Shown: in pieces, positions 30,690 to 60,287 of the stretch | How the letters are laid out: the number at the start of each line of letters is the position of its first letter | Numbering within the stretch: position 1 is the stretch's first letter | NCBI GenBank assembly: GCA_030647775.1 | Contig: JAUSJC010000010.1 | Span: 72,718-136,717 of the forward strand | DNA: 64,000 nucleotides | From: Candidatus Curtissbacteria bacterium | Lineage (GTDB): Bacteria; Patescibacteriota; Microgenomatia; Curtissbacterales; GWA2-41-24 | Direction: 5' to 3' | Translations under genes and position numbers: made by a program | Notes under the pieces: generated by a model | What the model saw: the letters and a program-made list of their open reading frames with translations, nothing else | Databases searched by the model: none | What the model was told of the DNA's origin: nothing

Positions 30690-32585
30690 ATGAACATCCG
30701 AAACTTTGCTCTAATTGCCCATATTGACCATGGCAAATCAACTCTTGCCGATCGTATTATGGAAGCCTGCGGCGCAGTTGGTACTTCTCACCAAGCCCAG
30801 CTTTTGGATAGTCTGGAGCTGGAGCGCGAGCACGGCATTACCATCAAACTCAAGGCGATCCGATTAGTTTACAAACCGGAAAATATTCTTCGAGCGAGCG
30901 AAGCGAGTCGAGAAGTTTCCACTGAAAATATTAATAGTTCTAAAGGTAAGTTCTCGATAAACTCGAACAATAATGACGCATTCATCTTGAACTTACTTGA
31001 TACTCCCGGCCATGTCGATTTTTCTTACGAGGTTTCCCGTTCGCTGGCCTCTGTCGAAGGCGCGATCCTAATTGTTGATGCTACTCAAGGCGTCCAGGCC
31101 CAAACGCTTTCCAATTTCACCCTCGCCCTCGATGCTAACCTCACCCTAATTCCCGTCATCAATAAGATTGATTCACCCCAAGCCGAGGTTGAAAAAACCC
31201 AGGAAGAGCTGAAAAACCTTGGTTTTTCACAAGCGGAAATAATCAAAGTTTCTGCCAAAACAGGCGAAGGAGTGGATCATCTTCTCGAACAAATCGTCAG
31301 CCGCATCCCACCGCCCACAAACTTCTCCGCACGTCATTCTGAACTCGTTTCAGAATCTAAAGACAAGATCCCGAATCAAGTTCGGGATGACAAGTTGAGA
31401 GCCCTCATTTTCGATTCCAGTCTAGATCCCTACAAAGGCGTCATCGCGACAGTCCGCTTATTTGGCGGAGGCCTAAAAGTAGGGGACCAGATAAAATTTT
31501 TGGCAACCGGCGCGCAAGCAGAGGTATTGCAAATCGGCTACCTAACTCCGGTCGTCAAATATGTCAATGAAATTAAATCGGGTGAAGTCGGCTTTATCGT
31601 TACCAATCTTAAGGACTTATTCAAAGTCGAAGTCGGGGATACCATCACCAGTCCCAAGGATCCGGCCAAACCGCTTCTCGGTTATAAGCATGCCAAACCG
31701 GTTGTTTTCCTTTCCTTTTATCCAACCGATGTCGGCGATTTTCCAAAATTAAAAGAAGGCCTGGAAAAATTAAAGCTAAACGATGCGGCGCTTTCCTTTT
31801 CCCCGGAAACTTCCATCTCCCTGGGCCAGGGCCTTCGCGTCGGCTTCCTCGGCTTACTCCACGCTCAAATTACCCAGGAGCGTTTGGAGCGCGAACATAA
31901 TCTGGATATTATTGCCGTTTCGCCTTCTGTCAATTTCGAAGTTGACGGCAAGCTTATCAATAAACCGTCGGAATTTGATCCGGCCGCCCAAAACGTCAAA
32001 GAGCCTTATGCCAAAGTAACCATTTTTGCCCCTCAAAAATATTTCGGCACCGTCTCCAATCTTGTTCACGACAAAAGAGGGACTCTCGGCAACTCCGAAA
32101 ACATCGGAAATCTTTTGAAAATCGAATGCGAAATTCCGCTCTTAGAACTTCTAATTGGTTTTTACGACCAATTAAAGACGCAAACTTCCGGTTACGGATC
32201 GCTCGATTTTGAACTGTCGGAGTATAAACCGGCAAAACTGGCCAAACTCGATATTCTGGTCAATCACGAACCGATAGAAGCCCTAACCCAGATTGTTCCG
32301 TACCAAAGGGCTGAAGAAATTGGCCGCAAATTTGTGGAAAAACTAAAAGATGCCATCCCGCGCCAGCAAATCCCAGTTCCAATCCAGGCGGCCATCGGCG
32401 GCAAAATTATCGCCCGCGAAACAATCGCCTCCTTTAGAAAAGACGTTACTGCTAAACTCTACGGCGGCGATGTCACGCGCAAGATGAAGCTTTTGCAAAA
32501 GCAAAAGAAGGGGAAGAAACGAATGAGAAGATTTGGAAGTGTCGATATTCCACAAGAAGCTTTCCTGGCTGTCCTTAAAGTATAA
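30690..32585 (+). CDS. lepA: Elongation factor 4 (LepA) carrying two in-frame repeat-element insertions
   Basis: IAHIDHGKSTL, DTPGHVDF, NKID, C-terminal LepA-specific domain; 631 aa vs ~600 typical. Confidence 0.9.
   Translation: MNIRNFALIAHIDHGKSTLADRIMEACGAVGTSHQAQLLDSLELEREHGITIKLKAIRLVYKPENILRASEASREVSTENINSSKGKFSINSNNNDAFILNLLDTPGHVDFSYEVSRSLASVEGAILIVDATQGVQAQTLSNFTLALDANLTLIPVINKIDSPQAEVEKTQEELKNLGFSQAEIIKVSAKTGEGVDHLLEQIVSRIPPPTNFSARHSELVSESKDKIPNQVRDDKLRALIFDSSLDPYKGVIATVRLFGGGLKVGDQIKFLATGAQAEVLQIGYLTPVVKYVNEIKSGEVGFIVTNLKDLFKVEVGDTITSPKDPAKPLLGYKHAKPVVFLSFYPTDVGDFPKLKEGLEKLKLNDAALSFSPETSISLGQGLRVGFLGLLHAQITQERLEREHNLDIIAVSPSVNFEVDGKLINKPSEFDPAAQNVKEPYAKVTIFAPQKYFGTVSNLVHDKRGTLGNSENIGNLLKIECEIPLLELLIGFYDQLKTQTSGYGSLDFELSEYKPAKLAKLDILVNHEPIEALTQIVPYQRAEEIGRKFVEKLKDAIPRQQIPVPIQAAIGGKIIARETIASFRKDVTAKLYGGDVTRKMKLLQKQKKGKKRMRRFGSVDIPQEAFLAVLKV
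30888..30977. repeat. MITE-like element (TTCGAGCGAG...GTTCTCGATAAACTCGAACAATAATGAC) inserted in frame in lepA G domain
   Basis: Encodes ~ILRASEASREVSTENINSSKGKFSINSNNN between conserved KAIRLVYKP and LNLLDTPGH. Confidence 0.8.
31332..31394. repeat. Palindromic element CGTCATTCTGAACTCGTTTCAGAATC...CCGAATCAAGTTCGGGATGAC inserted in frame in lepA
   Basis: Encodes SARHSELVSESKDKIPNQVRDD in loop after PPP motif. Confidence 0.8.
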
Positions 32586-34328: not shown

Positions 34329-35048
34329 ATGGACCTCACCGAACGCCAGAAAAAATTACTCCGCTCAATAATTGAAAAGTATATCGAGACGGCCGAACCA
34401 ATCGGTTCCGAGACTGTCGAGAAAGAGGCCGGGCTTGGAGTTTCGCCCGCAACCATCCGAAACGAAATGGTCAGGCTAACCGCTTTAGGCTACGTTCGCC
34501 AGCCTTACACCTCGGCCGGCCGCATTCCAACTTCCATGGGCATGAAGTTTTTTGTCGACCAGCTAATGGAAGAAAAAGCCCTTTCGCTGAAAGATGAAGT
34601 TGCTATCAAAGAAGAAATGAACCAGGGTGACCAGCGTTTTGAAAGGCATTTAAAGCACGCCGCCCAGGTTTTGGCGCAGCAGACAAAATCACTGGCCATT
34701 GCCAGTGATGAAGAGGGTGACATTTATGCTTCAGGTATGGCCAATATTTTGGATATGCCCGAATTTTATGATATCGATATCACCAAAACCGTCCTTTCCA
34801 TGCTCGATAAAGTCGAACTTCTAAACCAGGTTTTTGCCATGCTTCTTCCCCAGGACCAAATAAAAATCTTTTTCGGTGAAGAGCTTGGGGTTCCCTTTTT
34901 GGAACCATGCGGCTTTGTAATTGTCCGCTACGAAGCGCCAAGCCATAGAGGGGTCCTTGGGGTCATCGGCCCGTCGCGCCTAAACTATCCGGTGGTTATT
35001 CCGACCATGAAATACTTTGCCCATCTGCTCGGCGAATTTTCCAAATAA
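34329..35048 (+). CDS. hrcA: Heat-inducible transcription repressor HrcA (short form)
   Basis: MDLTERQKKLLRSIIEKYIETAEPIGSETV... winged-helix N-terminus typical of HrcA. Confidence 0.8.
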   Translation: MDLTERQKKLLRSIIEKYIETAEPIGSETVEKEAGLGVSPATIRNEMVRLTALGYVRQPYTSAGRIPTSMGMKFFVDQLMEEKALSLKDEVAIKEEMNQGDQRFERHLKHAAQVLAQQTKSLAIASDEEGDIYASGMANILDMPEFYDIDITKTVLSMLDKVELLNQVFAMLLPQDQIKIFFGEELGVPFLEPCGFVIVRYEAPSHRGVLGVIGPSRLNYPVVIPTMKYFAHLLGEFSK

Positions 35049-35051
35049 TCT

Positions 35052-35672
35052 ATGAAAAACGATATGCCCAAAACCAAATCTAACAAAACGGCCGAAGGCC
35101 CTGAGCAAAGTCGAAGGGACCAAAAACACGTCGAAGACCTTGAGCGCAGTCGAAGGGCCGAAGACCCTGAGCAAAGTCGAAGGGCCGCAGGTCATGAGAA
35201 TGATCGAATGGAGCTCGAAAACCGGCTCAAGCGTGCCCTTGCCGATTACCAGAATCTGGAGCGCCGTGTAGAAGAAGAGCGCAGGCTTTTGGGTCAACTT
35301 TCGTCAGCTCTTTTGATCGAGAAATTTTTGCCGGTTTTGGATAATCTGGAAAACGCCCAAAAACATTTGAACGACGAGGGCCTGGAAATTGTCATCCGTC
35401 AATTTAAAGATATTCTGTCTTCCGAAGGTGTTGAAGAAATCGAGTCCGTTGGTGCTGCTTTTGACCCTCATCAGCACGAAGCAGCCGAAGTCCAGGAAGG
35501 CGAAAACGACAATACAGTTGTCAAAGTCTTGCGTAAAGGTTATAAAATGAATGATAAGGTTCTTCGACCTGCCCAAGTTGTTGTCGAGAAAAAATCCGCC
35601 GGCGACAGCCAATCAGACAGTCTTGGTCAGGGAGTAAAAGAAGAGGAGGTTAATTATTCTTCGAGCGAGTGA
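35052..35672 (+). CDS. grpE: Nucleotide exchange factor GrpE with repeat-derived N-terminal extension
   Basis: LKRALADYQNLERRVEEERR core; N-terminus contains three tandem ~21-nt units (35099-35186) encoding PEQSRRD/LERSRRA/PEQSRRA. Confidence 0.85.
   Translation: MKNDMPKTKSNKTAEGPEQSRRDQKHVEDLERSRRAEDPEQSRRAAGHENDRMELENRLKRALADYQNLERRVEEERRLLGQLSSALLIEKFLPVLDNLENAQKHLNDEGLEIVIRQFKDILSSEGVEEIESVGAAFDPHQHEAAEVQEGENDNTVVKVLRKGYKMNDKVLRPAQVVVEKKSAGDSQSDSLGQGVKEEEVNYSSSE
35099..35186. repeat. Three tandem copies of CCYTGAGCRMAGTCGAAGGGMC inside grpE coding sequence
   Basis: Same unit at 12891-12911, 57298-57318, 48497-48518, 45839-45862, inverted at 35693-35712. Confidence 0.8.
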
Positions 35673-35754
35673 AACGAGTCGAGAAGTTTTAGTTCTCGAC
35701 AAGTCTTCGACCGTGAGGCTCAGACCGAATCGGCTCGAACAATAAAAAACTAAT
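35660..35754. repeat. MITE-like element (CTTCGAGCGAGTGAAACGAGTCGAGAAG...GGCTCGAACAATA) spanning grpE stop and dnaK start region
   Basis: Family TIRs; encodes grpE C-terminal NYSSSE. Confidence 0.75.
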
Positions 35755-37695
35755 ATGCCAAAAATTATTGGAATCGATCTAGGTACTACAAATAGCGCAG
35801 TTTCGGTTGTGGAAGCCGGCAAGCCAAAGGTTATCCACAGCGCCGAAGGCCGCAACATTATTCCGTCTGTTGTCGACCCGCAAAAACATATCGTCGGTGA
35901 CGTTGCCAAACGCCAGATGGTCGTTAACCCCAAAACCACGATCTTTTCCATCAAGCGTTTAATGGGCCGTAAGTTTAAAGATGCCGAAGTCCAGCGCGAT
36001 CTCAAATGGCTCCCCTACGAAGTTAAAGAAGGCAAAATCGGCATGGCGGTAGTTTCTGTCGACGGCCACGATTACACTCCGCAGGAAATCTCGGCCATGA
36101 TTATTGGCAAAATTAAAGCCGATGCCGAAGCCTATCTCGGCGGCAAGGTAGACCAGGCGGTCATTACCGTTCCGGCCTATTTTGACGATTCCCAACGGCA
36201 GGCTACCAAACAAGCCGGCGAAATTGCCGGTCTTAAAGTCGAGCGCATTATAAACGAACCGACAGCCGCGGCTCTTGCCTACGGTCTGGATAAATCCCAT
36301 GCCCACACCATTGCCGTTTACGACCTTGGCGGCGGCACTTTTGATATTTCCGTACTCGAGCTTGGCGAAGGCGTTTTTGAAGTCAAGGCCACCAACGGCG
36401 ATACCCATTTGGGCGGTGACGATTTTGACCAATTAATTGTCCAGTTCCTCATCGGCCAGTTCAAAGAAGAATCCGGCATGGATGTATCGCGCGACCGTCC
36501 GGCTCTCCAGCGTTTGCGCGACGCCGCCGAAAAAGCCAAGATCGAGCTTTCGACAACGCAGGAAACGGAAATCTCGATTCCCTATTTAACCGCCGACAAC
36601 ACCGGCCCGAAGCACCTGCAGCTTAAGCTTTCCCGCGCCAAGCTTGAACAAATCGTTGGCGAACTTGTCGAAAAGACTCTCGGCCCTGTTGCGGCCTGCT
36701 TAAAAGACGCCAAAATCGATCCTTCCAAAATTGACGAAGTTGTTTTGGTTGGCGGTATGACCAGAATGCCCCTGGTTACCGAAAAAGTAAAAAGCTTCTT
36801 TGGCAAAGAACCCAATAAAACCATCAACCCGGACGAAGTTGTCGCCATCGGTGCGGCCGTCCAGGGCGCGGTTTTAGGCGGCGAAATGAAAGAAATGGTA
36901 CTTCTCGATGTTACACCGCTAACTCTCGGAATCGAGACTTTAGGCGGTGTCTCAACGGCACTAATTTCCCGAAATACCACCGTCCCAACATCAAAGACCG
37001 AAGTTTTCTCAACGGCTTCGGATAACCAGACGTCTGTCGAAATTAACGTCCTTCAGGGTGAACGCCCGATGGCCAGCGATAACAAATCTTTAGGAAGATT
37101 TATTTTAGATGGTATTCCGCCCTCCCCCCGCGGCGTTCCGCAGGTAGAAGTTACTTTTGATCTTGACGCTTCCGGCATCCTGCACGTTAAAGCCAAGGAT
37201 AAGGCTACCGGCAAAGAGCAATCCATAAAAATCACCGGCTCAACCGGTCTTTCCGAAGAAGAAATTCAAAGGATGACCAAAGAGGCGGAGGAGCACGCCA
37301 AAGAAGACGAAACCAAAAAAGAAGAAATCGAAATTAGAAACCACGCCGACACTTTGGTCTATCAGGCCGAAAAGGCCTTAAAAGACGGCGGTGACAAAGT
37401 CCCGGCGGAAGTTAAGACCGAAGTTGAGGAAAAGATAAAAGCCCTGAAAGAAATCCAGTCTTCCGCCCCGATAGAAGAAGTCAAAGCCAAAACCGAAGAA
37501 CTTTCAACCTCACTTTCAAAAATCGGCTCGTCCATGTATAGCCAAGGTCAACCCGGAGGTGCTGACGCAGGAAGTACCGAAGGCACTGACGCAGGAAGTG
37601 CAGCCAATGGCGAGACTCCGCCCGAAAACGGACAACCAGGAGCAGACGACAAAGCAGCCGGCGACGTCCAAGAAGGAGAAGTTGTTAAGGAATAA
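35755..37695 (+). CDS. dnaK: Molecular chaperone DnaK (Hsp70)
   Basis: [18 protein letters not shown], canonical Hsp70 throughout; 646 aa. Confidence 0.95.
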
Positions 37696-37922
37696 ATTTC
37701 AATTATCAAGCACCAAATATCAAACAATTTCCAATCTCAAAATCCCAAAGTCTTCGTCTAAGTTTATAATTTAGAAATTGAAATTTTGAATTTGTTTGTG
37801 ATTTGGAATTTGGAGTTTGGAATTTAACCAAAGATGGCTACAAAACGCGACTTAGCCCCGCAGGGATTTAAATTTAGTTATAATTCACAAACGAAATTTA
37901 AAGCGCGAGGAGCGCAGACTTT

Positions 37923-38762
37923 TTGAATGAAATGAAAAAAGACTACTATGAAGTTTTAGGTGTCGGTAAAAACGCCGGCGCAGACGAGCTTAAAAAGGCT
38001 TACCGTACTATGGCGCGTAAACATCACCCCGATGTTGATAAATCCCCGGGCGCCAACGAAAAGTTTAAAGAAATAAACGAAGCCTACCAGGTGCTTTCCG
38101 ACCCAAACAAAAAGCAGGCCTACGACCAAATGGGTCACGCCGCTTTTGAACCCGGTGCCGGCGGCTTTGGCGGCGGCGCGGGCCAGGGTCCGTTCCAATA
38201 CCAGTGGTCTAGCCAGGGCGGCCAGGGATTCGAAGGATTTTCCGACCCTTTTGATATTTTTGAAATGTTTTTCGGCGGCCAGTCGCCTTTTGGCCGCGAA
38301 GCCCGTTTACCCCGTTACCAAATCCAGATCGATTTCACGGAAGCCGTCAATGGCGTAACCAAAGAAGTAGAAATAGAAGGCAAGCGCCAGAAAATAAAAA
38401 TCCCGCCGGGTGTCGACGACGGCTCCGAAATCCGCTTTGGCAATTTCATAATCATCACCTCTGTGCGCCAGTCGCCAAAATTTAAAAGAAGGGGATACGA
38501 CATTATCACCGAACACGAAATTACCTTTAGCCAAGCCGCGCTCGGCACCGAAGCGCGGATCGAAACCGTCTACGGCCCGGTAACCATAAGGATTCCCGCC
38601 GGCACCCAACCCGGCACGCAAATCCGCCTCAAAGGCAAAGGCGTCAAGCACCCCAGCGGCCGCGGCGTCGGCGACCACTACGTAATTATTAGATTAAACG
38701 TCCCAACGCGATTGTCCAAGGAGCAAAAAAAGTTACTGGAAGAATTAGAAAATCAATCATAA
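37923..38762 (+). CDS. dnaJ: DnaJ-class J-domain co-chaperone lacking zinc-finger (type II/CbpA-like)
   Basis: DYYEVLGV...HPD J domain, G/F-rich linker, C-terminal substrate-binding domains, no CxxCxGxG repeats. Confidence 0.8.
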   Translation: MNEMKKDYYEVLGVGKNAGADELKKAYRTMARKHHPDVDKSPGANEKFKEINEAYQVLSDPNKKQAYDQMGHAAFEPGAGGFGGGAGQGPFQYQWSSQGGQGFEGFSDPFDIFEMFFGGQSPFGREARLPRYQIQIDFTEAVNGVTKEVEIEGKRQKIKIPPGVDDGSEIRFGNFIIITSVRQSPKFKRRGYDIITEHEITFSQAALGTEARIETVYGPVTIRIPAGTQPGTQIRLKGKGVKHPSGRGVGDHYVIIRLNVPTRLSKEQKKLLEELENQS

Positions 38763-38793: not shown

Positions 38794-39285
38794 ATGACCG
38801 TAAAACTTGATTATATCCGCACTGCTGAACGGTGGCAGAGATATGGGGAAGAGTATTCAAAAGAGGGAAGAGAACATTGGAGCGACTTTATAAAGGCCTG
38901 TCTAAGTGTAACCACCTTTTTAATCGGTTTTAATGGTATTTGGCTTCAGATTAGAAAAGCACCACTCACGGACTTGGATAAAGCCTTATTTTTTTCAGCG
39001 TTTATTTACTTATGCCTTTCTTTAATATTCGGGCTTTGGGCAATTTTGGAAATGAATGCTTTTATGAATAAAATGGGTCGGTATTACGAAGAGAAATCAG
39101 AAGCCTTGTTCAAATTTATGCTCGATACTAGTACCGATAGAGGCGAGTCGTATCCTAATCACCTGCCCAAGAAAAACAACAAAGAATTCGAATTAATACC
39201 CTGGCCCTTTAAATATCAATTAGTCTGTTTGGGATTTGGGATCATTGCATCTACGTCACTGGGAATGCTATTTATTTTTAAGTAA
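38794..39285 (+). CDS. Hypothetical membrane protein
   Basis: 163 aa, 3-4 TM helices. Confidence 0.4.
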   Translation: MTVKLDYIRTAERWQRYGEEYSKEGREHWSDFIKACLSVTTFLIGFNGIWLQIRKAPLTDLDKALFFSAFIYLCLSLIFGLWAILEMNAFMNKMGRYYEEKSEALFKFMLDTSTDRGESYPNHLPKKNNKEFELIPWPFKYQLVCLGFGIIASTSLGMLFIFK

Positions 39286-39329
39286 CCCCAATTTTCCCGC
39301 CCGAATTTTTTTGGCTTTGATATAATTGC
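39286..39329 (+). promoter_or_regulatory. Cassette boundary/promoter motif copy 1 (degenerate): CCCCAATTTTCCCGCCCGAATTTTTTTGGCTTTGATATAAT
   Basis: Extended -10 TGATATAAT 39318-39326, 6 nt before ATG 39333. Confidence 0.6.
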
Positions 39330-39332
39330 TTG

Positions 39333-39659
39333 ATGCAAACAAAAATTATTTTGACAACCTCTACACTTATCATCGTATCTTTGCTTGTCGGTGCATTTTA
39401 TTGGTTTGTATCGAGACCTCAAGAGATTAGAAAAAGATGTTACAGTGAAATGTCCAGTTTAAGTGTTGATATTACTAAGCCCCCTAACGAAGCTTCCAGC
39501 TCTGTTTTTACTAGTACTCTCCCGCCACTAAGTAATGTAGGTCAACAAATACTTGAAGGTAAAAAACTAATTACCGATAAAGATAAAAATAATTATTACA
39601 GATCTTGCCTCGTAAAAAATGGACTCAAGCCCGAATCGCTATATGTGAATGTAAATTGA
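39333..39659 (+). CDS. Small membrane-anchored hypothetical protein (cassette 1)
   Basis: ~108 aa, N-terminal TM. Confidence 0.4.
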   Translation: MQTKIILTTSTLIIVSLLVGAFYWFVSRPQEIRKRCYSEMSSLSVDITKPPNEASSSVFTSTLPPLSNVGQQILEGKKLITDKDKNNYYRSCLVKNGLKPESLYVNVN

Positions 39660-39694
39660 GATTCCAATAAGTAAGCACAATTAGAATTTTAGTT

Positions 39695-39720
39695 CCCCAA
39701 ATTCCCCGCTCGATTTTGCT
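39695..39720 (+). promoter_or_regulatory. Cassette boundary motif copy 2 (CCCCAAATTCCCCGCTCGATTTTGCT; -10 part degenerate)
   Basis: Direct reading. Confidence 0.6.
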
Positions 39721-39742
39721 TTGAGTTGTCCCAAAAAGAAGC

Positions 39743-40378
39743 TTAACTGACCAATTCTCTTAGGTCTGGTACTTCTAAAACTTTTCCAAGTTCCCACTCA
39801 TTGCCATTAAAATCAAATCTCGGTATTGAATAAACGCTTCTTTGTCTTGATATTCCCCTAATAATTGGGCCCAAGCGTTGCAAGCTATTAAGCCTATCTT
39901 CGTTTCGTTTTCTGATTTGACCTTCTATTCCAGTATGTGCCGCTCCAATTACCGTTACAAGGTGGTTCAGACCTTCTACGTTTTTCATCAGCCATTCCTC
40001 TTTATGCGCGGTGATAGTTTCCCTGAGTCTTGAAGTTGGTCGAAAGGGCAAAAGGTAAATTTCTGGGAAAGCAATAAAACTCCTAATGCCTAAGTCTGCA
40101 TGATATACAGGGATTCGATACCTTTCCGCGTAATCAAGAACGCTAGAAAATTGCGGAAGAAATAGTCTGCCTAGCCCACTAAAATATTCTGGAAGCTCCT
40201 GTCCATATCTATCGGATGGCCACTCTATAACAAACGCGTCTAAATCGGGGGGAACAAAATCTAAATTTGTCCTTCGGTTGTGAGCACCATACACGATTGT
40301 GTAGACCCCTTCGGGCTTTTCGATTCGAGTAACTTTACTAGGGTCTTCTTGTCTTAAACGTTCATTCATAGCAAAAGT
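39743..40378 (-). CDS. TraB/GumN-like family protein (tentative; cassette 2, inverted)
   Basis: VYGAHN and VIGAAHTGIEG GxxH-type motifs; ORF-track N-terminus (to 40549) is antisense of neighbouring EamA TM region and boundary motif, so start placed at MNERLRQ. Confidence 0.35.
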   Translation of the reverse strand, partial: TFAMNERLRQEDPSKVTRIEKPEGVYTIVYGAHNRRTNLDFVPPDLDAFVIEWPSDRYGQELPEYFSGLGRLFLPQFSSVLDYAERYRIPVYHADLGIRSFIAFPEIYLLPFRPTSRLRETITAHKEEWLMKNVEGLNHLVTVIGAAHTGIEGQIRKRNEDRLNSLQRLGPIIRGISRQRSVYSIPRFDFNGNEWELGKVLEVPDLRELVS

Positions 40379-40417
40379 GGAGTATAACAGGAATAGTGAG
40401 CCAATTTCAACTATAGG

Positions 40418-40456
40418 CCCAAATTCCCCGCTCGATTTCCGTAACTTCTGATATAC
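40418..40456 (+). promoter_or_regulatory. Cassette boundary/promoter motif copy 3 (CCCAAATTCCCCGCTCGATTTCC...TGATATACT)
   Basis: -10-like TGATATACT 40448-40456, ATG 40464. Confidence 0.6.
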
Positions 40457-40463
40457 TTTTCTC

Positions 40464-41312
40464 ATGTCTTGGATCGTATTGGCACTAGCTAGCGTTATAT
40501 TTTTCTCTATTTCCGCGCTGCTCCAAAAAGTCTTGATGAAAAACGACAAAAGCGACCCGTACGCCTATTCCATAATGTTTCAATTCTTAATCTGGGCTGT
40601 GGCGGCAACCGTTGTTCTTTGGACTGGCTTTGTTATGCCCCCCATTAAGACATACCCACTCAATTTCTTGTTTTCGTCTGTTATGTACGGCCTTGGAACC
40701 ATTTGTGCTTTTAAGGCGCTTAAATATATAGAAGCTTCGGAATTCACAATAATAAGCTCTGTAAAAGCTATCGTTACGATTATTTCTGCTGTTTTAATTT
40801 TGGGTGAAGTTTTTGATTACAAAAAGGCACTTGGTACCGCATTGGTTTTAATTTCTGCATATTTAGTTACCCAAAAATCCAGAAAAATAAAGTTCAACAA
40901 AGGCACCCTTTATGCTTTAGGGACTGCGCTGACGTATGGACTCGCTATTACAAACGACACATTTCTACTAAAATATTCTGAAGTATTTTCGTATCTGACA
41001 GTTGGTAATCTAATCACAGTACTTTTTGTGATTGCAATAAAACCCACAGCGGTTAAAAATTTAAACCATTTTTTCGATCTCGCGATTCTTTCCAAAATGC
41101 TTATACTCGGCATCTTATATTCTTTTGGAGCAGTCGCCTTTTATTTGGCAATTCAAAGTGGTGCAGCAGCTTCTCAAATCTCGCCGATTTTGCAGACCTC
41201 TGTAATTGTCACGGTTCTACTCGCAGCCATATTTTTGGGCGAAAGAGACAATTTGGTTAAAAAAATCGCAAGCGCTATATTGGTAACAATTGGAGTAATA
41301 CTAATTAAGTAG
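40464..41312 (+). CDS. EamA/DMT-superfamily transporter (cassette 3)
   Basis: 282 aa, 10 TM, duplicated EamA domains. Confidence 0.7.
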   Translation: MSWIVLALASVIFFSISALLQKVLMKNDKSDPYAYSIMFQFLIWAVAATVVLWTGFVMPPIKTYPLNFLFSSVMYGLGTICAFKALKYIEASEFTIISSVKAIVTIISAVLILGEVFDYKKALGTALVLISAYLVTQKSRKIKFNKGTLYALGTALTYGLAITNDTFLLKYSEVFSYLTVGNLITVLFVIAIKPTAVKNLNHFFDLAILSKMLILGILYSFGAVAFYLAIQSGAAASQISPILQTSVIVTVLLAAIFLGERDNLVKKIASAILVTIGVILIK

Positions 41313-41313
41313 A

Positions 41314-41349
41314 CCCAAATTCCCCGCTCGATTTTTGCCCTGATATAAT
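41314..41349 (+). promoter_or_regulatory. Cassette boundary/promoter motif copy 4 (CCCAAATTCCCCGCTCGATTTTTGCCCTGATATAAT)
   Basis: Extended -10 TGATATAAT 41341-41349; ATG 41356 (leaderless). Confidence 0.65.
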
Positions 41350-41355
41350 CACCTG

Positions 41356-41931
41356 ATGACAAAACTTATTTTTATCACGCATCCCGCCGTCGATGTTGAC
41401 CCCACGATTCCTATTAATCAGTGGCATGTTTCCAAAGATGGACAAAAGCAAATTGACAACCTTTTGACATTGCCCTTTTGGTCGGAAGTAGATGTGATTT
41501 ACTCAAGCCAAGAAGGGAAAGCGCTGAATACCGCGAATAAGATCAAAAGCCATTTTGACCATCTCAAATCTCCGGCACCAGAAGGAACGTTTGATCTGCA
41601 CGAAATAGACAGAAGCGCAACCGGAGTTCTTCCAAAAGACGTATACGATAAAGCGATCGAAGAATTTTACCTGTACCCCAATAAAAGTTATAAAGGATGG
41701 GAAACAGCAAACGCGGCAAAAGAGAGGATTTTTAAAGTTGTAAGCCAAATTATTGATGATAACCCCAATAAAACTGTTGCCATCGTTGGTCATGGGGCCA
41801 CCGGAACACTCTTAGCCTGCCAGATTAAAAAAATCGAACCCTCTTTTGCCGAGGATCCGCACACAAACGGCTGCATTATGGTTTACGATTGGGACGAAAA
41901 GACAATACTTTCGCCCTGGACCAAGTATTAA
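41356..41931 (+). CDS. Histidine-phosphatase superfamily (PGM-like) protein (cassette 4)
   Basis: LIFITHPAV (RHG-position His) and VAIVGHGATG second His motif. Confidence 0.5.
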   Translation: MTKLIFITHPAVDVDPTIPINQWHVSKDGQKQIDNLLTLPFWSEVDVIYSSQEGKALNTANKIKSHFDHLKSPAPEGTFDLHEIDRSATGVLPKDVYDKAIEEFYLYPNKSYKGWETANAAKERIFKVVSQIIDDNPNKTVAIVGHGATGTLLACQIKKIEPSFAEDPHTNGCIMVYDWDEKTILSPWTKY

Positions 41932-41976
41932 AATTCCCCGCTCGATTTTTGGTCCCTTGATGAATTAATGTATAAT
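41931..41976 (+). promoter_or_regulatory. Cassette boundary/promoter motif copy 5 (AAATTCCCCGCTCGATTTTTGGTCCCTTGATGAATTAATGTATAAT)
   Basis: TATAAT 41971-41976 followed by AGGAAAGGA SD-like and ATG 41996. Confidence 0.6.
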
Positions 41977-41995
41977 TTATAGGAAAGGATTTAAT

Positions 41996-42187
41996 ATGTC
42001 TGCAATTGACCTTCGGAAAATCTTAAAAGAGAACAAATCTGGGTGGGTAGCTTTAACTCAAGATAACAAAAAGAAAATAGCGCAAGGTAAAACCCTCAGC
42101 GAAGTACTTAAAAAAGCCAAAGAAAAGGGAATCGAAAAGCCCAGTGTGTTTAAAGTTCCTTCTCTGGGCACTTACTATGTCGGTTAA
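41996..42187 (+). CDS. Small lysine-rich protein (DUF5678-like/antitoxin-like, tentative), translationally coupled to downstream protease (cassette 5)
   Basis: 63 aa; stop overlaps next start (TAATG). Confidence 0.4.
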   Translation: MSAIDLRKILKENKSGWVALTQDNKKKIAQGKTLSEVLKKAKEKGIEKPSVFKVPSLGTYYVG

Positions 42188-42642
42188 TGGATTTCAGCTA
42201 CACAATTGTCACTGACTGGCCTAATCATCAAGTTCGTCAACGCTATCTCCCTTGGATAAATATCGGAATTAAAAAACCTGGCAAAGAAGACACAATTTGG
42301 CCATTGGGACTTGTAGATTCCGGTGCGGAAATAACTATTTTAGATAGAGAAATCGGAGAAGAACTGGGATTTAACTTTAAAAAAGCGGCGAGAGACATAA
42401 TCACCGGTTTTGGTGGGGGTAAAGTAGAAGTGTTTCTTCTGCAAGCGGAATTCGTCATCGATGATAATAGTGGGAAGGAACCTATTATATATAAAGATTT
42501 GTTAGGATTTACAAAAGGCCAATTCCCTCAAACCCATCCACAGCAAACTGCCATATTTGGAACCATAGGTTTATTTAGAAATGCTCAAGTTAATTTTCGG
42601 TATCCGACTAATATTCATATAGAACAATTCAAAGCGAAATAA
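42187..42642 (+). CDS. Retropepsin-like (clan AA) aspartic protease
   Basis: GLVDSGAEITILD contains D-S-G-A catalytic motif; 151 aa size typical of bacterial/archaeal retropepsin-like proteins. Confidence 0.6.
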   Translation: MDFSYTIVTDWPNHQVRQRYLPWINIGIKKPGKEDTIWPLGLVDSGAEITILDREIGEELGFNFKKAARDIITGFGGGKVEVFLLQAEFVIDDNSGKEPIIYKDLLGFTKGQFPQTHPQQTAIFGTIGLFRNAQVNFRYPTNIHIEQFKAK

Positions 42643-42645
42643 TTT

Positions 42646-42689
42646 CCCCCAAATTCCCCGCTCGCGATATTTGCTTTTGATATAATCTC
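42646..42689 (+). promoter_or_regulatory. Cassette boundary/promoter motif copy 6 (CCCCCAAATTCCCCGCTCGCGATATTTGCTTTTGATATAAT)
   Basis: Extended -10 TGATATAAT 42680-42688; ATG 42693. Confidence 0.65.
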
Positions 42690-42692
42690 TTC

Positions 42693-43418
42693 ATGCAAAG
42701 CTTCACTTTTAATAGCGATAATCTCAAATTAGATGGGGCGCTTTTTTATCCCCCGATTAAAAAGGTTAAACACCCTGCTATTCTTTTTGTTCATGGTTGG
42801 ACGAGCGCGAAAGAAAGAAGTTTTCAGTATGCAGAAGCGCTCGCTGATTTAGGTTACATCTGCTTATTGTTTGACATGAGGGGTCACGGAACAAGCGAAG
42901 GCGATATTAATGCTTCTACTTTCAAAGACTTTCTAGAGGATGTTATGAGCGCCTACGATTATCTTTTAGGGACGAGCGGCGTTAATCCGGAGAATATCAG
43001 CTCCGTGGGATCAAGTTTTGGTGGATATCTTGTGGCCCTTCTTTCCTCAAAAAGAAAAGTAAAGAATTTAGTATTACGTGTACCGGCAGATTACCCTAAC
43101 GAATCGTTTAATGATCTTAAAAAATTATATAGTGGCGATGATCCGGAAGCAGTGAACTGGCGAAATCAGTCAAGGAAATCAACCGAAACATACGCGCTTG
43201 AAGCACTGAATAATTTTAAAGGCGATATCTTGATTATTGAATCAGAAAAAGATGATACAGTTCCTCATCAAACAATTGTAAATTATATAAACGCAGTCAA
43301 AGACAAAAACAGATTAACTCATATCGTTATGAAAGATGCCCCACACAGTTTAAAAGAAGGTAAATTTAGAGATGAGGTTGGGCGAATACTTGCTAAGTGG
43401 TTTCAAAATAAATCCTGA
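42693..43418 (+). CDS. Alpha/beta hydrolase (dienelactone hydrolase/peptidase S9-like) (cassette 6)
   Basis: GSSFGG nucleophile elbow, HGW...., C-terminal D and H. Confidence 0.7.
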   Translation: MQSFTFNSDNLKLDGALFYPPIKKVKHPAILFVHGWTSAKERSFQYAEALADLGYICLLFDMRGHGTSEGDINASTFKDFLEDVMSAYDYLLGTSGVNPENISSVGSSFGGYLVALLSSKRKVKNLVLRVPADYPNESFNDLKKLYSGDDPEAVNWRNQSRKSTETYALEALNNFKGDILIIESEKDDTVPHQTIVNYINAVKDKNRLTHIVMKDAPHSLKEGKFRDEVGRILAKWFQNKS

Positions 43419-43434
43419 CGTTTTTCGTTAGGCG

Positions 43435-43450
43435 CCCCAAATTCCCCGCC
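43435..43450 (+). promoter_or_regulatory. Cassette boundary motif copy 7 (CCCCAAATTCCCCGCC, truncated)
   Basis: Direct reading; closes the array. Confidence 0.55.
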
Positions 43451-43452
43451 AT

Positions 43453-44406
43453 TTATATTTCCATTATCCAGTCTTTAAATTTATTCGCGTAAGAAAAGTC
43501 AGGCGAAGAAATCAAGGATTCGTCCAAAAATCCGCCGATTGCCCGCGCCGCAAAAATAACTTTCAATTTTTCAACCTTATAACCCTTCGCCAAAAGCATG
43601 GAGAATATCTTTTGGGCCAGTGGCGGATTTTGAACTACGCTAAAGACCCGCTGGATAAAATAACCGATATCATATCCCTCTACACCCCCTGCCATGGCGT
43701 GCTCGCCATCGATTAACCCCAGTTGCCCGGTTTTGAGTTTAAAAAGGTGCCATGGCGTAAAATCTCCATGCCGTGGTCTCATTTCTAATTTGTCAACACC
43801 ATCCGCGACAATTCTAAGTAGTCCCTCTAAGCCGTACTCGTTTCTTATATCCACCGGTACGTTTTCAAACCACGATTTGGTTTTATTAACAAACCTGGCT
43901 TTGTAATCTTGGTCCCCGTAGAATATTTCTGTTAAATTTTCAAACTTGAGCTCGCCAATAAACTCTGAAAAATCAATAATTTCCCGGAGGCTGTTTACTA
44001 AAACATCGGAAGTTTCTCCGGCTTTAGGCCTTTGCACTAAAAGTTCGCCTTCGAAATTATCTGTTATAAGATAAAAAAGTTTACTTTGCCAGATTCCGCT
44101 ATCGAAGTTCTGCGGTACCCAAAAGCCTGATTTTCGTCTTTCAACCTGCTTATTGAAAGCACTGTTCCAGTCTTTTTCAATCTTTGTAACCTCGCTTATT
44201 CCTTCTGTCGTTGCCAGCTTTAAAAATAAAACCTGTCCGGATTTTTCAAGTTCCCCAAGAACATGCCTGCCGCCTGCCCAAATCCTCCTGACTTTATATT
44301 TACTTTCAAAAAATTCCCGCGCCTTTTGTAAATCTAACTTGGCGCTTTGCCGATAATCCAGGGTTTTATCGTTTATTTTAATTTTGAAAGCGCTGATTTT
44401 TTGCAT
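43453..44406 (-). CDS. APH/choline-kinase-family phosphotransferase (protein-kinase-like fold) (cassette 7, inverted)
   Basis: HGDFTPWH (HGDxxxxN catalytic loop) and IDGEHA (IDxE/DFG-equivalent). Confidence 0.65.
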   Translation of the reverse strand: MQKISAFKIKINDKTLDYRQSAKLDLQKAREFFESKYKVRRIWAGGRHVLGELEKSGQVLFLKLATTEGISEVTKIEKDWNSAFNKQVERRKSGFWVPQNFDSGIWQSKLFYLITDNFEGELLVQRPKAGETSDVLVNSLREIIDFSEFIGELKFENLTEIFYGDQDYKARFVNKTKSWFENVPVDIRNEYGLEGLLRIVADGVDKLEMRPRHGDFTPWHLFKLKTGQLGLIDGEHAMAGGVEGYDIGYFIQRVFSVVQNPPLAQKIFSMLLAKGYKVEKLKVIFAARAIGGFLDESLISSPDFSYANKFKDWIMEI

Positions 44407-44445: not shown

Positions 44446-44583
44446 ATGATCGTCAAAGTTAAAGAAGGTTGGCGCGTCGTTGCCGAAAGCGGCCGCAACA
44501 TGGGCACTTACAAGAAAAAAGAGGACGCCGAAAAACGGCTTAAACAAATTGAAATGTTTAAGCACATGAAGAAAAAATGGTAA
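44446..44583 (+). CDS. Small basic protein (45 aa), DUF2188-like (tentative)
   Basis: MIVKVKEGWRVVAESGRNMGTYKKKEDAEKRLKQIEMFKHMKKKW; below ORF-track size cut-off; followed by terminator. Confidence 0.35.
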   Translation: MIVKVKEGWRVVAESGRNMGTYKKKEDAEKRLKQIEMFKHMKKKW

Positions 44584-44641
44584 TTTGACTCACCGGCATT
44601 CTTTTGCTAGAATTCCCTTTAGATTTTAGGTACTCGGAATG

Positions 44642-44664
44642 AGGCGCGTATGCGCCTTTTTTTG
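44642..44664 (+). terminator. Rho-independent terminator
   Basis: AGGCGCGTATGCGCCT hairpin followed by T7. Confidence 0.7.
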
Positions 44665-44781: not shown

Positions 44782-46137
44782 ATGGCAATACAACAAAGAA
44801 GTGAATTTGCGTCAGCTCTAAACCAGGTTTGTTCCGAGCGCGGAATCGAACCGGCAGTGGTTATCGACTCCATAAAACAGGCAATTCTGGCGGCCTACCG
44901 CAAAGATTACGGCGAACCCGAAGGTATTGAGGTCGAGATCAACGAGGTTAGCGGCGAGGTTACCCTCAAAAAGGATAAAGAAATTGTCACTCCTCCGGGC
45001 TTTGGCCGCATTGCCGCCCAAACCGCCAAACAGGTAATCTTACAAAGGATCAGGGAAGCGGAAAAAGAAGCCATCATGGGTGAATATTCTTCCAAAGTCG
45101 GCACCGTAGTTTCCGGAGTAATCCAGCGCATTTCCGGCCCGATTGTCACTATCAGTCTTGGTAAAGCCGAAAGTATTATGCCCCCGCCGGAACAGGCTCG
45201 CGGCGAAAAATATTATGTCAACCAACGCCTGAAATTTTATATTGTCGGTATCAAAGAAGGTATGCATGGCGAAGAAATCATCGTTTCCCGTTCGGCAAAC
45301 GGTCTTCTGGAAGGTTTATTCAAACAGGAAGTACCGGAAATGGCTTCTGGCGCAGTCGAGGTTAAGGCTATGGCCCGTGAAGCCGGATCGCGTTCTAAAA
45401 TTGCCGTTGCTTCCGGGCAGCTTGGTGTCGACCCGGTCGGTTCTTGTGTCGGCCAAAAAGGCGTCCGCGTGCAGGCAGTAATCAACGAACTCGGCGACGA
45501 AAAAATCGACGTTATTGCTTATCAGGAAGACTTGGCGCAGTTTATACAAGCCGCGCTTTCTCCGGCTAAAGACCTGCAGGTTAAAATCGACGAAAAAACA
45601 AAAGTCGCCGAAGTGACGGCGCCCGACGACCAGCTTTCTTTGGCTATCGGTAAAGAAGGCCAAAACGTGCGCTTGGCGGCCAAACTGACCGGTTACAAAA
45701 TTGACATTCGCGGCAAAAGTGGTACACCTAGAGAAGTAGAAGCCAAAGGGAAAGCCGCGCAGGAAGAAGCCAGAAAAGCCTTTGGAGTTACAGAAGAGTC
45801 GAGGGAGCCAAAGGTCGAAAACACTGAGCAAGCTACAGCCCTGAGCTCGTCGAAGGTCGAAGACCATGAGCGTAGTCGAATGGGTCGAAGTGCAGACGAT
45901 CAGGCTAAGATAGCGCAAGTCCCGTCAGGCGATGGTCAACCAAAAACTGACGAGGTTCCGGTAGGAGACACAGAGCCATTAATTTCGAGTAAACGAGAAA
46001 TAAGCTCTCTTATCGCCGATGCCGAAGAGAAAAAAGAAGAGGAAGAGGCAGAAAAAGTAGCAGAAGAAATCAAAGTTAAGCCGGAAAAAGCAGAAGAAAA
46101 TGAATCAAAACCAGATTCATCAGACGATCAACCGTAA
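44782..46137 (+). CDS. nusA: Transcription termination/antitermination factor NusA with repeat-derived acidic C-terminal extension
   Basis: N-terminal domain, S1 and two KH domains (GQLGVDPVGSCVGQKGVRVQAV, LAIGKEGQNVRLAAKLTGYKIDI); C-terminus contains repeat units at 45839-45862 and 46006-46028. Confidence 0.9.
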   Translation: MAIQQRSEFASALNQVCSERGIEPAVVIDSIKQAILAAYRKDYGEPEGIEVEINEVSGEVTLKKDKEIVTPPGFGRIAAQTAKQVILQRIREAEKEAIMGEYSSKVGTVVSGVIQRISGPIVTISLGKAESIMPPPEQARGEKYYVNQRLKFYIVGIKEGMHGEEIIVSRSANGLLEGLFKQEVPEMASGAVEVKAMAREAGSRSKIAVASGQLGVDPVGSCVGQKGVRVQAVINELGDEKIDVIAYQEDLAQFIQAALSPAKDLQVKIDEKTKVAEVTAPDDQLSLAIGKEGQNVRLAAKLTGYKIDIRGKSGTPREVEAKGKAAQEEARKAFGVTEESREPKVENTEQATALSSSKVEDHERSRMGRSADDQAKIAQVPSGDGQPKTDEVPVGDTEPLISSKREISSLIADAEEKKEEEEAEKVAEEIKVKPEKAEENESKPDSSDDQP

Positions 46138-46168
46138 ATGAAACGCTTGTCGTCTCAAACAAAAAAAT

Positions 46169-47593
46169 ATGGACACAGACAAAAAAAACAATTTCAGGCC
46201 GCCGGTTGTATCGATTTTAGGTCACGTTGACCACGGTAAAACCACCCTCCTTGACGCAATCCGCAAAACCAACGTTGCCGCCGGCGAACACGGCGGTATT
46301 ACCCAGCATATTGGTGCTTATCAAATAGAGGCAAACGATCAACTCATCACGTTTGTAGATACTCCCGGCCACGCCGCGTTTGAAAAAATGCGCTCCCGCG
46401 GTGCCGAGGTCGCCGATATCGTTATTCTGGTTGTTGCCGCCGGCGACGGGGTTAAACCCCAGACGATTGAAGCCATTAAACATATCCAAAACGCCAAAAA
46501 GCCGGTGATTGTTGCTATTACCAAAGTCGATTTACCAGACGTCAATATAGACAAAGTCAAAAAAGAGCTCCAGACGGCCGGTATTACTGTTGAAGAATAC
46601 GGCGGTGAGGCGCCGGTTGTCCAGGTTGCCGCGCCAAAAGGCAAGGGGATAGCCGAGCTTCTGGAGGTAATCGGCCTTGTCTGGCAGTTAAATCCCCAGC
46701 AGTCCGAATCAAATGCGCCCCTTGAGGCAATAGTCGTCGAATCAAAAATGGACAAAAACCGCGGCCCTGTTGTTACGGTTATTGTTAAAAAAGGTACGCT
46801 TTCCATTGGGCAAAAAATCATCGTTAACGGCGAGACGATTTCGGTTAAAGCCTTAATTGACGATCACGGCAATAACGTCAAATTAGCCGAGCCCGGTATG
46901 CCGGTCGAGATTTTGGGATTCAAAAAAACCTTGGATGTCGGCAGTATTGTTTCAGATACCATCACCAAGGTATATGAAAGCGTGCTGCCTGCCTCTTATG
47001 CCGATATTATCGCCAAAGCCCAGCAGTCCAAAGATAAATTTAAGGTAATAATCAAAGCCGACGTCTTAGGGTCTCTCGAAGCGGTTCTTGCCAATCTGCC
47101 GGAAAATATCCTCGTTCTCTCGTCCTCTGTCGGTGAAATCAACGAAAGTGATATTGCTTTCGCCAAAACCGCCGGAGTACCGATAATCGCTTTCGGGTTT
47201 AAAGCAAACCCGAAAATCGTCTCCCAAGCCGGGAGGGATGGCGTTCTTGTTCGAAATTACAATGTAATTTACGAACTCTTAGACGATCTTACCGATGTTG
47301 CTCTTGGTTTCCAAGCCGCTAAAGAAGAGGCCAAAGTTAAGGGCCGGGCTAAAGTTGTGGCCACCTTTGATATCGAAGGCAAAAAAATTGCCGGTTGTAT
47401 GGTAACGTTTGGCCGCCTCAAAATTGGCGACGAAGTTTACCTAAAAGACAAAAATGAAAAAGTTGCCAAGATCGTTTCAATCAAAAGGTTTAAAAAAGAC
47501 GTAGAAACAATAGCAAATGGTCAGGATTGCGGAATTCTCTTTGCCCCGATTCTTGACTTTAAAGAAGGCGACATACTAGAATCATTGGGTTAA
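46169..47593 (+). CDS. infB: Translation initiation factor IF-2 (short form, G domain onward)
   Basis: [21 protein letters not shown] motifs; 474 aa lacking long N-terminal region. Confidence 0.9.
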
Positions 47594-57520: not shown

Positions 57521-57599
57521 CTGATATTAGTCCAGTTTACTGGACGCATGGTGCTGTATTAGATTTGCTTTTGCAAATCGCATGGCGCTGTATATAATT
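57521..57599 (+). promoter_or_regulatory. alaS promoter region: conserved module CCAGTTTACTGG-ACGCATGGTGCTGTATTAGA, inserted hairpin GATTTGCTTTTGCAAATC, then GCATGGCGCTGTATATAAT
   Basis: -10 TATAAT 57593-57598, ATG 57605; hairpin creates TTGCAA at -35 spacing. Confidence 0.55.
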
Positions 57600-57604
57600 G
57601 CTTC

Positions 57605-60231: not shown

Positions 60232-60277
60232 CTGATATTAGACCCAGTTTACTGGGCGCATGGCACTGTATATAATT
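60232..60277 (+). promoter_or_regulatory. Conserved promoter module CTGATATTAGACCCAGTTTACTGGGCGCATGGCACTGTATATAAT
   Basis: -35 TTTACT 60248-60253, 17-nt spacer, -10 TATAAT 60271-60276; ATG 60288. Confidence 0.6.
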
Positions 60278-60287
60278 AGGTTCGCGA

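Follow-up and report, generated by a model that had tools for sequence, protein, structure and literature searches.

Between the hrcA-grpE-dnaK-dnaJ and nusA-infB operons of a Candidatus Curtissbacteria genome lies a hypervariable array of accessory open reading frames (ORFs), which occupies a fixed chromosomal hotspot in one Candidatus Curtissbacteria clade and is divided by co-oriented copies of one short junction module. We analysed this array in a 64,000-nucleotide (nt) stretch of contig JAUSJC010000010.1, hereafter the window, whose closest DnaJ matches belong to Candidatus Curtissbacteria (Microgenomates/Patescibacteria), and in related genomes. The architecture is real and unusual, has the look of a gene cassette system and is probably undescribed. 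In the explanation that we favour, to which we assign a probability of roughly one half, the modules would act both as private promoters and as substrates for recombination, with no dedicated integrase.

The core of the junction module is a 17-mer, CCCAAATTCCCCGCTCG, of which the window holds four exact copies (at 39696, 40418, 41314 and 42648) and three related copies with three mismatches each. Two of the latter are degenerate (CCCAATTTTCCCGCCCG at 39287 and CCCAAATTCCCCGCCAT at 43436); the third, at 41928, has the 14-nt core AAATTCCCCGCTCG without a mismatch, and the motif there takes in the TAA stop codon of the upstream gene. All seven copies lie on the plus strand, within 39286-43452. 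An earlier inspection of the letters by a model that ran no database searches (the sequence-only reading) had reported one string occurring seven times. Its positions were right to 0-3 nt and the seven related copies exist, although only four are exact, one being fused to a stop codon and two degenerate. When up to three mismatches to CCCAAATTCCCCGCTCG are allowed, the window yields eight matches where 0.34 are expected, and none of 100 shuffles reached eight. The eighth match, at 50865 inside pnp, was not convincing by profile search and looks like chance; the same search found no further core copies in the rest of the window, in agreement with the earlier statement that the motif occurs nowhere else in the 64 kb.

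A combination of metagenome scanning and protein-anchored look-ups led to four further genomes with an array at the same site and with the same motif: L078, L079 (the same contig as L024), L087 (the same array as L028, on another contig) and L090 (a 6.9-kb fragment that holds only part of dnaJ and the array). The flanking genes are common to the window and these four wherever the contig covers them. Among the window, L078, L079 and L087, dnaK is 83-86% identical at the nucleotide level; L090 is more distant (dnaJ about 80% identical), and DnaJ is 89-97% identical in amino acid (aa) sequence. A profile search of the window and eight related loci recovered 26 core copies with at most one mismatch in the 14-nt core and about six weaker, degenerate ones. 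All of these approximately 32 cores lie inside the dnaJ-nusA gap on the dnaJ-to-nusA strand, and the profile found none in the flanks of the window and of the relatives' loci, which total more than 100 kb. Over the five genomes the core is near-invariant, whereas the adjacent coding DNA is merely 78-82% identical.

In three more distant Curtissbacteria (L083, L085 and L086; DnaJ 73-77% identical) the dnaJ-nusA synteny is kept, with one, three or nine genes in between, and no clear copy of a CCCAAATTCCCCGCTCG-type motif was found. This absence makes the motif specific to the clade and, in the sequence covered, to the locus. Within the dnaJ-nusA island of L086 (a 1.08-Mb contig), an inverted EamA gene is surrounded by faint remnants of the motif, CCCACATTCCCGGAACGATTTA and TTTTCCCCGCCGAGG, at 11121-11145 and 12086-12142, and the histidine phosphatase (His_Phos) gene of the same genome keeps a TTTTAGCCCCTGATATAAT promoter with no core.

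Wider scans gave little beyond this clade. In a collection of species-representative genomes, to which the source species and its motif-bearing relatives do not belong, AAATTCCCCGCTCGATTT had 15 single matches, about the number expected by chance and mostly in unrelated phyla. Two fell in the Candidate Phyla Radiation (CPR), one within a coding region of a Woesebacteria genome and one, intergenic and isolated, on a Patescibacteria contig. A scan of viral contigs for the motif returned zero matches and therefore gave no pointer to a phage origin. The 17-mer scan of metagenomes returned 61 loci, three of which were real relatives (L024, L028 and L058); the remainder were single matches with no -10 box downstream, mostly on GC-richer contigs, and look like chance.

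Gene content between the motif copies was compared across the window, L078, L079, L087 and L090, that is, across five genomes that are 80-90% identical. The same motifs at the same chromosomal site were found to enclose mostly different genes, which supports the earlier description of accessory genes arrayed like cassettes, with a single conserved motif at their boundaries. In an all-against-all BLASTP comparison of the array ORFs, most proteins occurred in one genome only. The exceptions were His_Phos (four genomes), B3_4 (three), and TauE, a minus-strand GNAT and a 241-aa hydrolase (two each, the last in the window and L090), and B3_4, TauE, the minus-strand GNAT and the hydrolase recur in differing contexts. 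His_Phos is preceded by an EamA gene in the window and by Ser_hydrolase in L087, and is fused to B3_4 in L078 and L090; downstream of it, each of the four genomes has a different neighbour (DUF5678, RelB/ParE, HicBA and an inverted 82-aa ORF). The hydrolase follows His_Phos in the window and precedes it in L090. Toxin-antitoxin pairs (Gp49/HTH, HicBA, RelB/ParE) form units in L078, L079 and L087, and some units of L078 and L090 are joined by ATGA overlaps from which the module has been deleted. ORF-level turnover and re-ordering are thus evident, and the shared units carry a signature of horizontal transfer. Between the window and L090 the hydrolase gene is 89.8% identical at the nucleotide level and dnaJ 80.5%, and the identities among His_Phos copies do not follow the core-gene grouping, the most divergent copies being those of the three genomes that are closest by core genes. 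The higher identity of the hydrolase and the failure of His_Phos to track the core genes therefore point to exchange of units between lineages.

A complete module is about 45 nt long and reads, from left to right, upstream stop codon, C-run and core (together 17-20 nt, CCCC(C)AAATTCCCCGCTCG), T-tract, extended -10 box (TGnTATAAT), 6 nt and start codon; the modules nearly fill the intergenic gaps, which as a whole measure 43-64 nt. Four of the seven plus-strand modules of the window have exactly this spacing. Module 1 (39286..39326) consists of the degenerate core CCCCAATTTTCCCGCCCG, a T-tract and TGATATAAT at 39318, 6 nt before the ATG at 39333; it aligns with the first modules of L079 and L087, and the three are followed by three different genes, one of them inverted. 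Module 3 (40417..40457) has an exact core and TGATATACT at 40449, 6 nt before the ATG at 40464. Module 4 (41313..41349) has an exact core, ATTTTTGCCC and TGATATAAT at 41341, with its ATG at 41356, and module 6 (42647..42686) an exact core and TGATATAAT at 42678, with its ATG at 42693, again 6 nt away in both cases. In module 5 (41929..41976) the core and the TAA stop codon are fused; a T-tract, TGTATAAT at 41969 and a leader with the Shine-Dalgarno-like AGGAAAGGA come next, which places the -10 box 19 nt from the ATG at 41996. The two remaining modules, each located ahead of the 3' end of a minus-strand gene, are without a good -10 box: module 2 (39695..39725) is an orphan with an exact core, and module 7 (43435..43452), whose core is degenerate at its 3' end, abuts the stop codon of the inverted gene. 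The sequence-only reading had credited five copies with an extended -10 box ending 6-20 nt before the next ATG and had described the copies beside inverted genes as degenerate in this respect. The distances and the poor boxes of copies 2 and 7 agree with what we find; the exact box is confined to three copies, with TGATATACT and TGTATAAT as variants in the other two.

The conserved core is separable from the promoter and is not itself the promoter. Depending on the copy, the -10 hexamer lies 11, 13, 14, 15, 16, 17, 18, 22 or 25 nt beyond the end of the core, a spread that rules out a -35 element, which would require a constant spacer of 17 +/- 1 nt, and likewise a fixed-distance activator site; a scan with a consensus promoter did not pick up the module sites. 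Perfect cores are kept where no plus-strand gene follows, for example in window copy 2, L079:12198 and L090:6246, each of which precedes the 3' end of an inverted gene. The Fic and RelB/ParE units of L078 have a perfect core and yet possess their own canonical TTGACA-N17-TATAAT promoter farther downstream. Conversely, two 21-nt junctions, TAA-yyTCCC-TGATATAAT, in L087 and L090 have the -10 box without the core. The core is also independent of gene orientation and flanks inverted genes without being inverted: a core in array orientation lies to the left of all six inverted genes (one of these cores is decayed) and to the right of four of the five that could be assessed, and on their own strand none of the inverted genes has the motif upstream.

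The right half of the module, by contrast with the core, is a putative leaderless promoter. Ahead of most array units, at 6-8 nt from the start codon, stands what reads as an extended -10 box of their own, and the proposal of leaderless transcripts made in the sequence-only reading is consistent with the 6-nt spacing and the lack of a Shine-Dalgarno sequence in four modules. This geometry is not specific to the array, because a -10 box ending 6-7 nt before the start codon is found for 12 of the 48 window genes, seven of which lie outside the dnaJ-nusA interval. Only three of the 48 well-defined window genes have a Shine-Dalgarno-like sequence. Leaderless-type starts thus look like a genome-wide habit rather than a property of the array, and the genome appears to rely widely on leaderless or other non-Shine-Dalgarno initiation.

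Two shared units, His_Phos and the hydrolase, place the limits of exchange inside the modules. In both, inter-genome similarity starts at TGATATAAT, runs through the ORF, its stop codon and a short conserved spacer, and stops at the 3' end of the next core, exactly after ...CCCCGCTCG, so that the core and short spacer go with the upstream gene and the -10 box with the downstream gene. The label of a 5' motif carrying a promoter, given to the repeat in the sequence-only reading, therefore does not hold in general. At other junctions the module is conserved in full ahead of unrelated genes, from its core to slightly past the -10 box (a few nucleotides), as in L078 unk111, L087 unk190 and L079 unk284, and some breakpoints fall at the start codon instead of the core. 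The breakpoints thus lie inside the modules, where they appear at more than one place. Crossovers at several places in the module are better accommodated by homology exchange within 45 nt than by a fixed cleavage point, and secondary deletions could blur a site-specific pattern.

Comparable layouts were found in two further loci with His_Phos homologues. A Levyibacteriota locus (L091, reached through a homologue 62% identical) has a run of unrelated accessory genes with four copies of GCTGGCAATTTCCCCAAAAA, in modules at 3284-3330, 10830-10876, 11326-11371 and 12074-12116; stop codons directly adjoin three of the copies, and in three the motif leads into TTTGATATAAT and, after 6 nt, a start codon. 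Two duplicated promoter modules of this locus are separated by an assembly gap (a run of N). A third module variant, GCYTATAATTCYCTACC-N-TTTGATATAAT, is shared in two copies by minus-strand genes of L093, a 58-kb contig, at about 12209-12275 and 12987-13052; near these genes, with coordinates of 5893-8418 and 19141-20576, a His_Phos homologue (58% identical) lies alongside TraG/VirD4-like and TrbC/type IV secretion system pilin genes. On the strength of these few copies, the architecture may be widespread in Microgenomates, with lineage-specific cores.

How, then, could such an array arise and persist? In the explanation that we favour, the right half of each module would be a private promoter without a -35 element, initiating at or beside the start codon, and would allow an independently acquired ORF to be expressed in a nearly Shine-Dalgarno-free genome. 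One promoter per ORF would be expected because an incoming ORF needs either transcription from its own start or translational coupling, the latter exemplified by the ATGA-fused units. The module as a whole, present in one orientation between all units and common to the strains, would at the same time be a substrate for deletion, insertion, swapping and re-ordering of ORFs, through recombination in modules and conserved flanks after uptake of DNA from related strains and with no dedicated integrase. Such recombination appears to be the most economical mechanism. Several observations weigh against it. With 17-20 nt in the fully conserved core and about 45 nt in the whole module, the shared stretches are short for RecA-type exchange to be efficient. 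No core stands between dnaJ and the ORF that follows it, yet this ORF is a different one in every genome, so replacement is not strictly dependent on a core at both sides. As the genomes compared are 80-90% identical, part of the differences in content could also stem from ordinary insertions and deletions that accumulated over a long period. The restriction of the motif to this locus rests on 64 kb of a 527-kb source contig plus the relatives' loci, and the silence of the metagenome scan on other loci is weak evidence because that scan was not exhaustive: at least one array-bearing contig (L089) was missed by it and recovered by protein-anchored look-up. Finally, no integrase or recombinase domain was found by Pfam in the approximately 50 ORFs of the window, and the Pfam lists for genes called near the arrays of L078, L079 and L087, to a distance of about 10 kb, likewise contain no recombinase; the sequence-only reading had proposed to look for one nearby.

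The main alternative, which we regard as improbable, is a site-specific cassette system in which a recombinase encoded in trans recognises the core plus T-tract (about 25 nt) and moves units as circles. The uniform orientation of some 32 cores whatever the orientation of the genes, the bracketing of essentially every unit, inverted ones included, and the near-invariance of the core amid diverged coding DNA would all be expected of a recombination site. The sharp end of homology after ...CCCCGCTCG in the two shared units, the presence of toxin-antitoxin units, the changes in unit order among genomes and a weak dyad, CCAAA-N-TTTGG, in some copies of the otherwise asymmetric motif also fit. Of the alternatives, moreover, only this one explains a shared, co-oriented 17-mer at one locus without an added propagation step. 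It is opposed by the absence of a recombinase from the genes searched in the window and near the arrays, by the asymmetry of the site, whose right half is variable and offset by 0-3 nt in a manner unusual for core sites of tyrosine or serine recombinases, and by the existence of breakpoints at start codons and of core-less junctions. The junctions, furthermore, do not fold: on both strands of four junctions, folding z-scores of -1.2 to +0.7 were no better than those of shuffled sequences. Taken at its fullest, this alternative would amount to an undescribed cassette-capture system of CPR bacteria (Microgenomates), with an asymmetric, non-hairpin site of about 25 nt and a recombinase encoded elsewhere, which seems doubtful to us. 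It is similarly a tentative idea that each cassette would bring or receive a leaderless promoter, making the system an integron analogue of independent origin, and we hold out only a limited chance that its sites would be lineage-specific, CCCCAAATTCCCCGCTCG in the Curtissbacteria clade and GCTGGCAATTTCCCCAAAAA in Levyibacteriota.

Less likely than a trans-acting recombinase is that the core is the operator of one DNA-binding regulator (monomeric, marbox-like or stoperator-like) that co-regulates or silences the units. Under that proposal, which we rate as low in its second part as in its first, the variability of the array would come from ordinary gene turnover and promoter duplication and not from the motif. 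An asymmetric, near-invariant motif of 17-20 nt just upstream of an extended -10 box in most copies would suit a regulator, as would the AATT(T)CCC-containing motifs upstream of TGATATAAT in the Levyibacteriota locus and L093, and there is a general analogy with mycobacteriophage stoperators. Yet the 11-25 nt between core and -10 box show no helical phasing, perfect cores stand without a promoter or gene to control (L078:11580 in addition to the three before inverted genes), and the inverted genes have no motif upstream on their own strand; an operator also leaves unexplained why unrelated, recently exchanged genes should share the same 17-mer. Least likely of all, in our view, is a compact insulator between independent leaderless transcription units, in which core and T-tract would form an orientation-specific, hairpin-less, factor-dependent 3'-end or termination signal for the upstream gene and the -10 box would restart transcription for the next one. 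The core does abut or overlap the upstream stop codon (0-4 nt in most copies) and precede a T-run, core and spacer segregate with the upstream gene in the shared units, and no hairpin terminators occur between units, the sole one being before nusA. These features are countered by the lack of secondary structure (z-scores as above) and of an Rfam match at the junctions, by cores that also follow the 5' ends of inverted genes in four of five cases, where there is no plus-strand transcript to end, and by the fact that no other gene in the window uses the core as a signal.

Other identities for the motif were considered and rejected. The folding results rule out an attC or other hairpin element, and GTTRRRY is absent from the junctions. 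An Rfam RNA family or a tRNA-derived att site is ruled out as well: the array has no Rfam family, the only matches being spurious ones to eukaryotic long non-coding RNAs far below threshold, and the window has no tRNA gene. The neighbouring dnaK operon made a heat-shock sigma-32-like promoter or a CIRCE (controlling inverted repeat of chaperone expression) element worth considering, but the motif is no palindrome, and the region upstream of it where a partner would lie is coding sequence that varies. Retro-copied leaderless mRNAs, considered on account of the start-codon breakpoints, are excluded as a general origin of the units by the inverted units, which have their own promoters.

Among known systems the array would seem to work most like a chromosomal integron or CALIN, that is, a cluster of attC sites without an integrase, and like the minimal mobile elements of Neisseria. 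In integrons, attC sites are imperfect inverted repeats of 55-140 nt that act as single-strand hairpins with RYYYAAC and GTTRRRY ends, and most cassettes have no promoter of their own and depend on a shared Pc promoter for expression. Like an integron, the array consists of unrelated accessory ORFs, mostly small and with toxin-antitoxin pairs among them, between which one co-oriented site is repeated; occasional inverted units with their own promoter, content that varies among relatives and a fixed chromosomal position are further features in common. It differs in that IntI is not among the window ORFs or near the arrays of the three relatives searched, in that its site is 17-25 nt long, asymmetric, unfolded and without RYYYAAC/GTTRRRY, in that most units read as having their own -10 box with no common Pc, and in that breakpoints are not confined to one position. 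Co-oriented sites and variable content are therefore present, while IntI, attC and mostly promoterless cassettes were not found in the sequence covered, and the earlier view that the boundary is not an integron attC 3' site holds. Neisseria minimal mobile elements are whole-gene alternatives between conserved flanks, exchanged by transformation and homologous recombination. The dnaJ and nusA housekeeping flanks around alternative gene sets, with no dedicated recombinase needed, recall them, whereas the subdivision of the array by a repeated junction motif into 7-15 units of varying order does not.

Shorter repeats offer partial parallels. The pdif (XerC/D) sites of Acinetobacter plasmids are 28-bp dyads (11-6-11) in alternating orientation; they too bound accessory modules, toxin-antitoxin pairs among them, with no adjacent dedicated integrase, but the array motif is asymmetric and always in direct orientation and is not a pdif site. 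Mycobacteriophage stoperators are 13-bp repressor sites spread over the phage genome. Like the array motif they are asymmetric, multi-copy, co-oriented and placed in tiny intergenic gaps near stop codons; unlike it they are not tied to cassette turnover, and the array motif has no known binding protein. Repetitive extragenic palindromic (REP) sequences and miniature inverted-repeat transposable elements (MITEs) are palindromic or bounded by terminal inverted repeats and dispersed on both strands, whereas the array motif has no hairpin and keeps to one strand and one locus. Putative mobile promoters (Matus-Garcia et al., Nucleic Acids Research 2012, PMC3488235, where the term 'minimal mobile elements' also occurs) were defined as sequences of at least 50 nt and at least 80% identity in upstream regions of at least 150 nt, with non-homologous coding sequences on both sides; co-oriented tandem junctions are not described there. 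The likeness lies in one upstream sequence, -10 box included, that precedes non-homologous genes across related genomes. The array modules differ in being about 45 nt long (under the 50- and 150-nt criteria), in filling the whole intergenic gap, in their tandem, co-oriented arrangement at one locus and in that their most conserved part is not the promoter. We found no description of such arrays in CPR bacteria in the literature, and a paper on 'hypervariation' in Gracilibacteria (PMC6851277) concerns an unrelated tandem PTD-repeat protein.

The units of the window array are as follows. The first variable ORF after dnaJ, on the plus strand at 38794..39285, encodes a membrane-like protein of 163 aa and has no core upstream. 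Unit 1 (39333..39659, plus) is a small membrane-like ORF of 108 aa, and unit 2 (39743..40369, minus) an inverted ORF of 208 aa with the promoter TGTTATACT at 40381-40389 on the minus strand. Unit 3 (40464..41312, plus) is an EamA-family transporter (PF00892, E = 2e-25), unit 4 (41356..41931, plus) the histidine phosphatase (His_Phos_1) common to L078, L087 and L090, and unit 5 (41996..42642, plus) a DUF5678 protein with an overlapping 151-aa ORF. Unit 6 (42693..43418, plus) is the 241-aa alpha/beta hydrolase, which matches L090:1888-2613 at the identity given above, and unit 7 (43453..44406, minus) an inverted ORF of 317 aa with its own promoter and a Shine-Dalgarno-like sequence. Pfam confirmed the EamA, His_Phos_1, DUF5678 and alpha/beta hydrolase labels of the sequence-only reading; the retropepsin proposed as partner of DUF5678 had only a sub-threshold aspartyl protease match (E = 0.005). 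No family was found for the two inverted ORFs or the two small membrane-like ORFs. Searches of Pfam, NCBIfam and PDB sequences lent no support to the 'TraB-like' label of unit 2, nor was there any hidden Markov model support in them for the 'APH-like' label of unit 7, whose ORF does contain HGDFTPWH and LIDGEH, which we take to be kinase-like (HGD/IDGE) motifs.

On both sides the array is framed by plus-strand operons identified by Pfam. The left flank (hrcA, grpE, dnaK and dnaJ, 34329..38762) keeps its synteny in near and distant relatives, as does the right flank in the relatives (nusA and infB, 44782..47593), which begins an operon, nusA-infB-...-pnp, that extends onward from 44782. At the right edge of the array (44446..44658, plus) lie a 45-aa ORF, also present in L078, and the sole canonical hairpin terminator of the region (44641-44658). 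The array is poorer in GC (about 0.40) than its flanks (0.45-0.48).

Other repeats in the window are of a different kind, two dispersed families on both strands standing in contrast to the one-strand, one-locus array motif. A hairpin family, AGATCCYGAA-N-TTCRGGATGACA, which looks REP/MITE-like, has eight mostly intergenic copies, at 7473(-), 17834(+), 19391(+), 21682(-), 31370(+), 49239(+), 52547(-) and 63667(-). A second family, GTTCTCGA...GCTCGAACAATA, has at least 11 copies (7579, 8226, 12946, 18636, 19312, 26223, 30961, 35733 and 52629 on the plus strand, 30895 and 35666 on the minus strand), some of them just upstream of dnaK, a Lon-like AAA gene, rmuC and a PsbP-like gene; this family has GCTCGA in common with the array core and may represent an operator for heat shock or stress, or else a further mobile repeat. 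Both families have copies inside the lepA ORF (30690-32585), at 30862-31400. The ORF stays open, at 631 aa compared with 581-612 in relatives, and its nucleotide alignments to L024 and L028 break at 30862-30990 and 31309-31400, which suggests in-frame repeat insertions in an essential GTPase gene. Two unrelated genes share the upstream module CCAGTTTACTGGRCGCATGGYRCTGTATATAAT (57560-57604 and 60240-60287), one of them with a -10 box 6 nt before its ATG. A 24-nt perfect palindrome, CTCTAATACACTAGTGTATTAGAG, is identical inside the arrays of L024 (12556-12579) and L028 (10406-10429), with different neighbours: it follows a toxin-antitoxin unit in one genome and an Rce1-like ORF in the other.

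The genomes of CPR/Patescibacteria are tiny, and the ways in which these bacteria gain accessory genes and express them are poorly understood; the locus described here offers a concrete, repeatable architecture, a hotspot fixed between two essential operons at which ORF-sized units are exchanged between lineages. Its module of about 45 nt would allow any incoming ORF to be transcribed from its own start codon in a genome where ribosome-binding sites are nearly absent. To our knowledge few cis-elements have been characterised in the CPR lineage, and were the core merely a regulatory or termination signal it would still be a new, sharply defined one there. If it is a recombination site, it would represent a new cassette system outside the integron paradigm and a simple sequence tag for mining the accessory genes of uncultured CPR bacteria from metagenomes.

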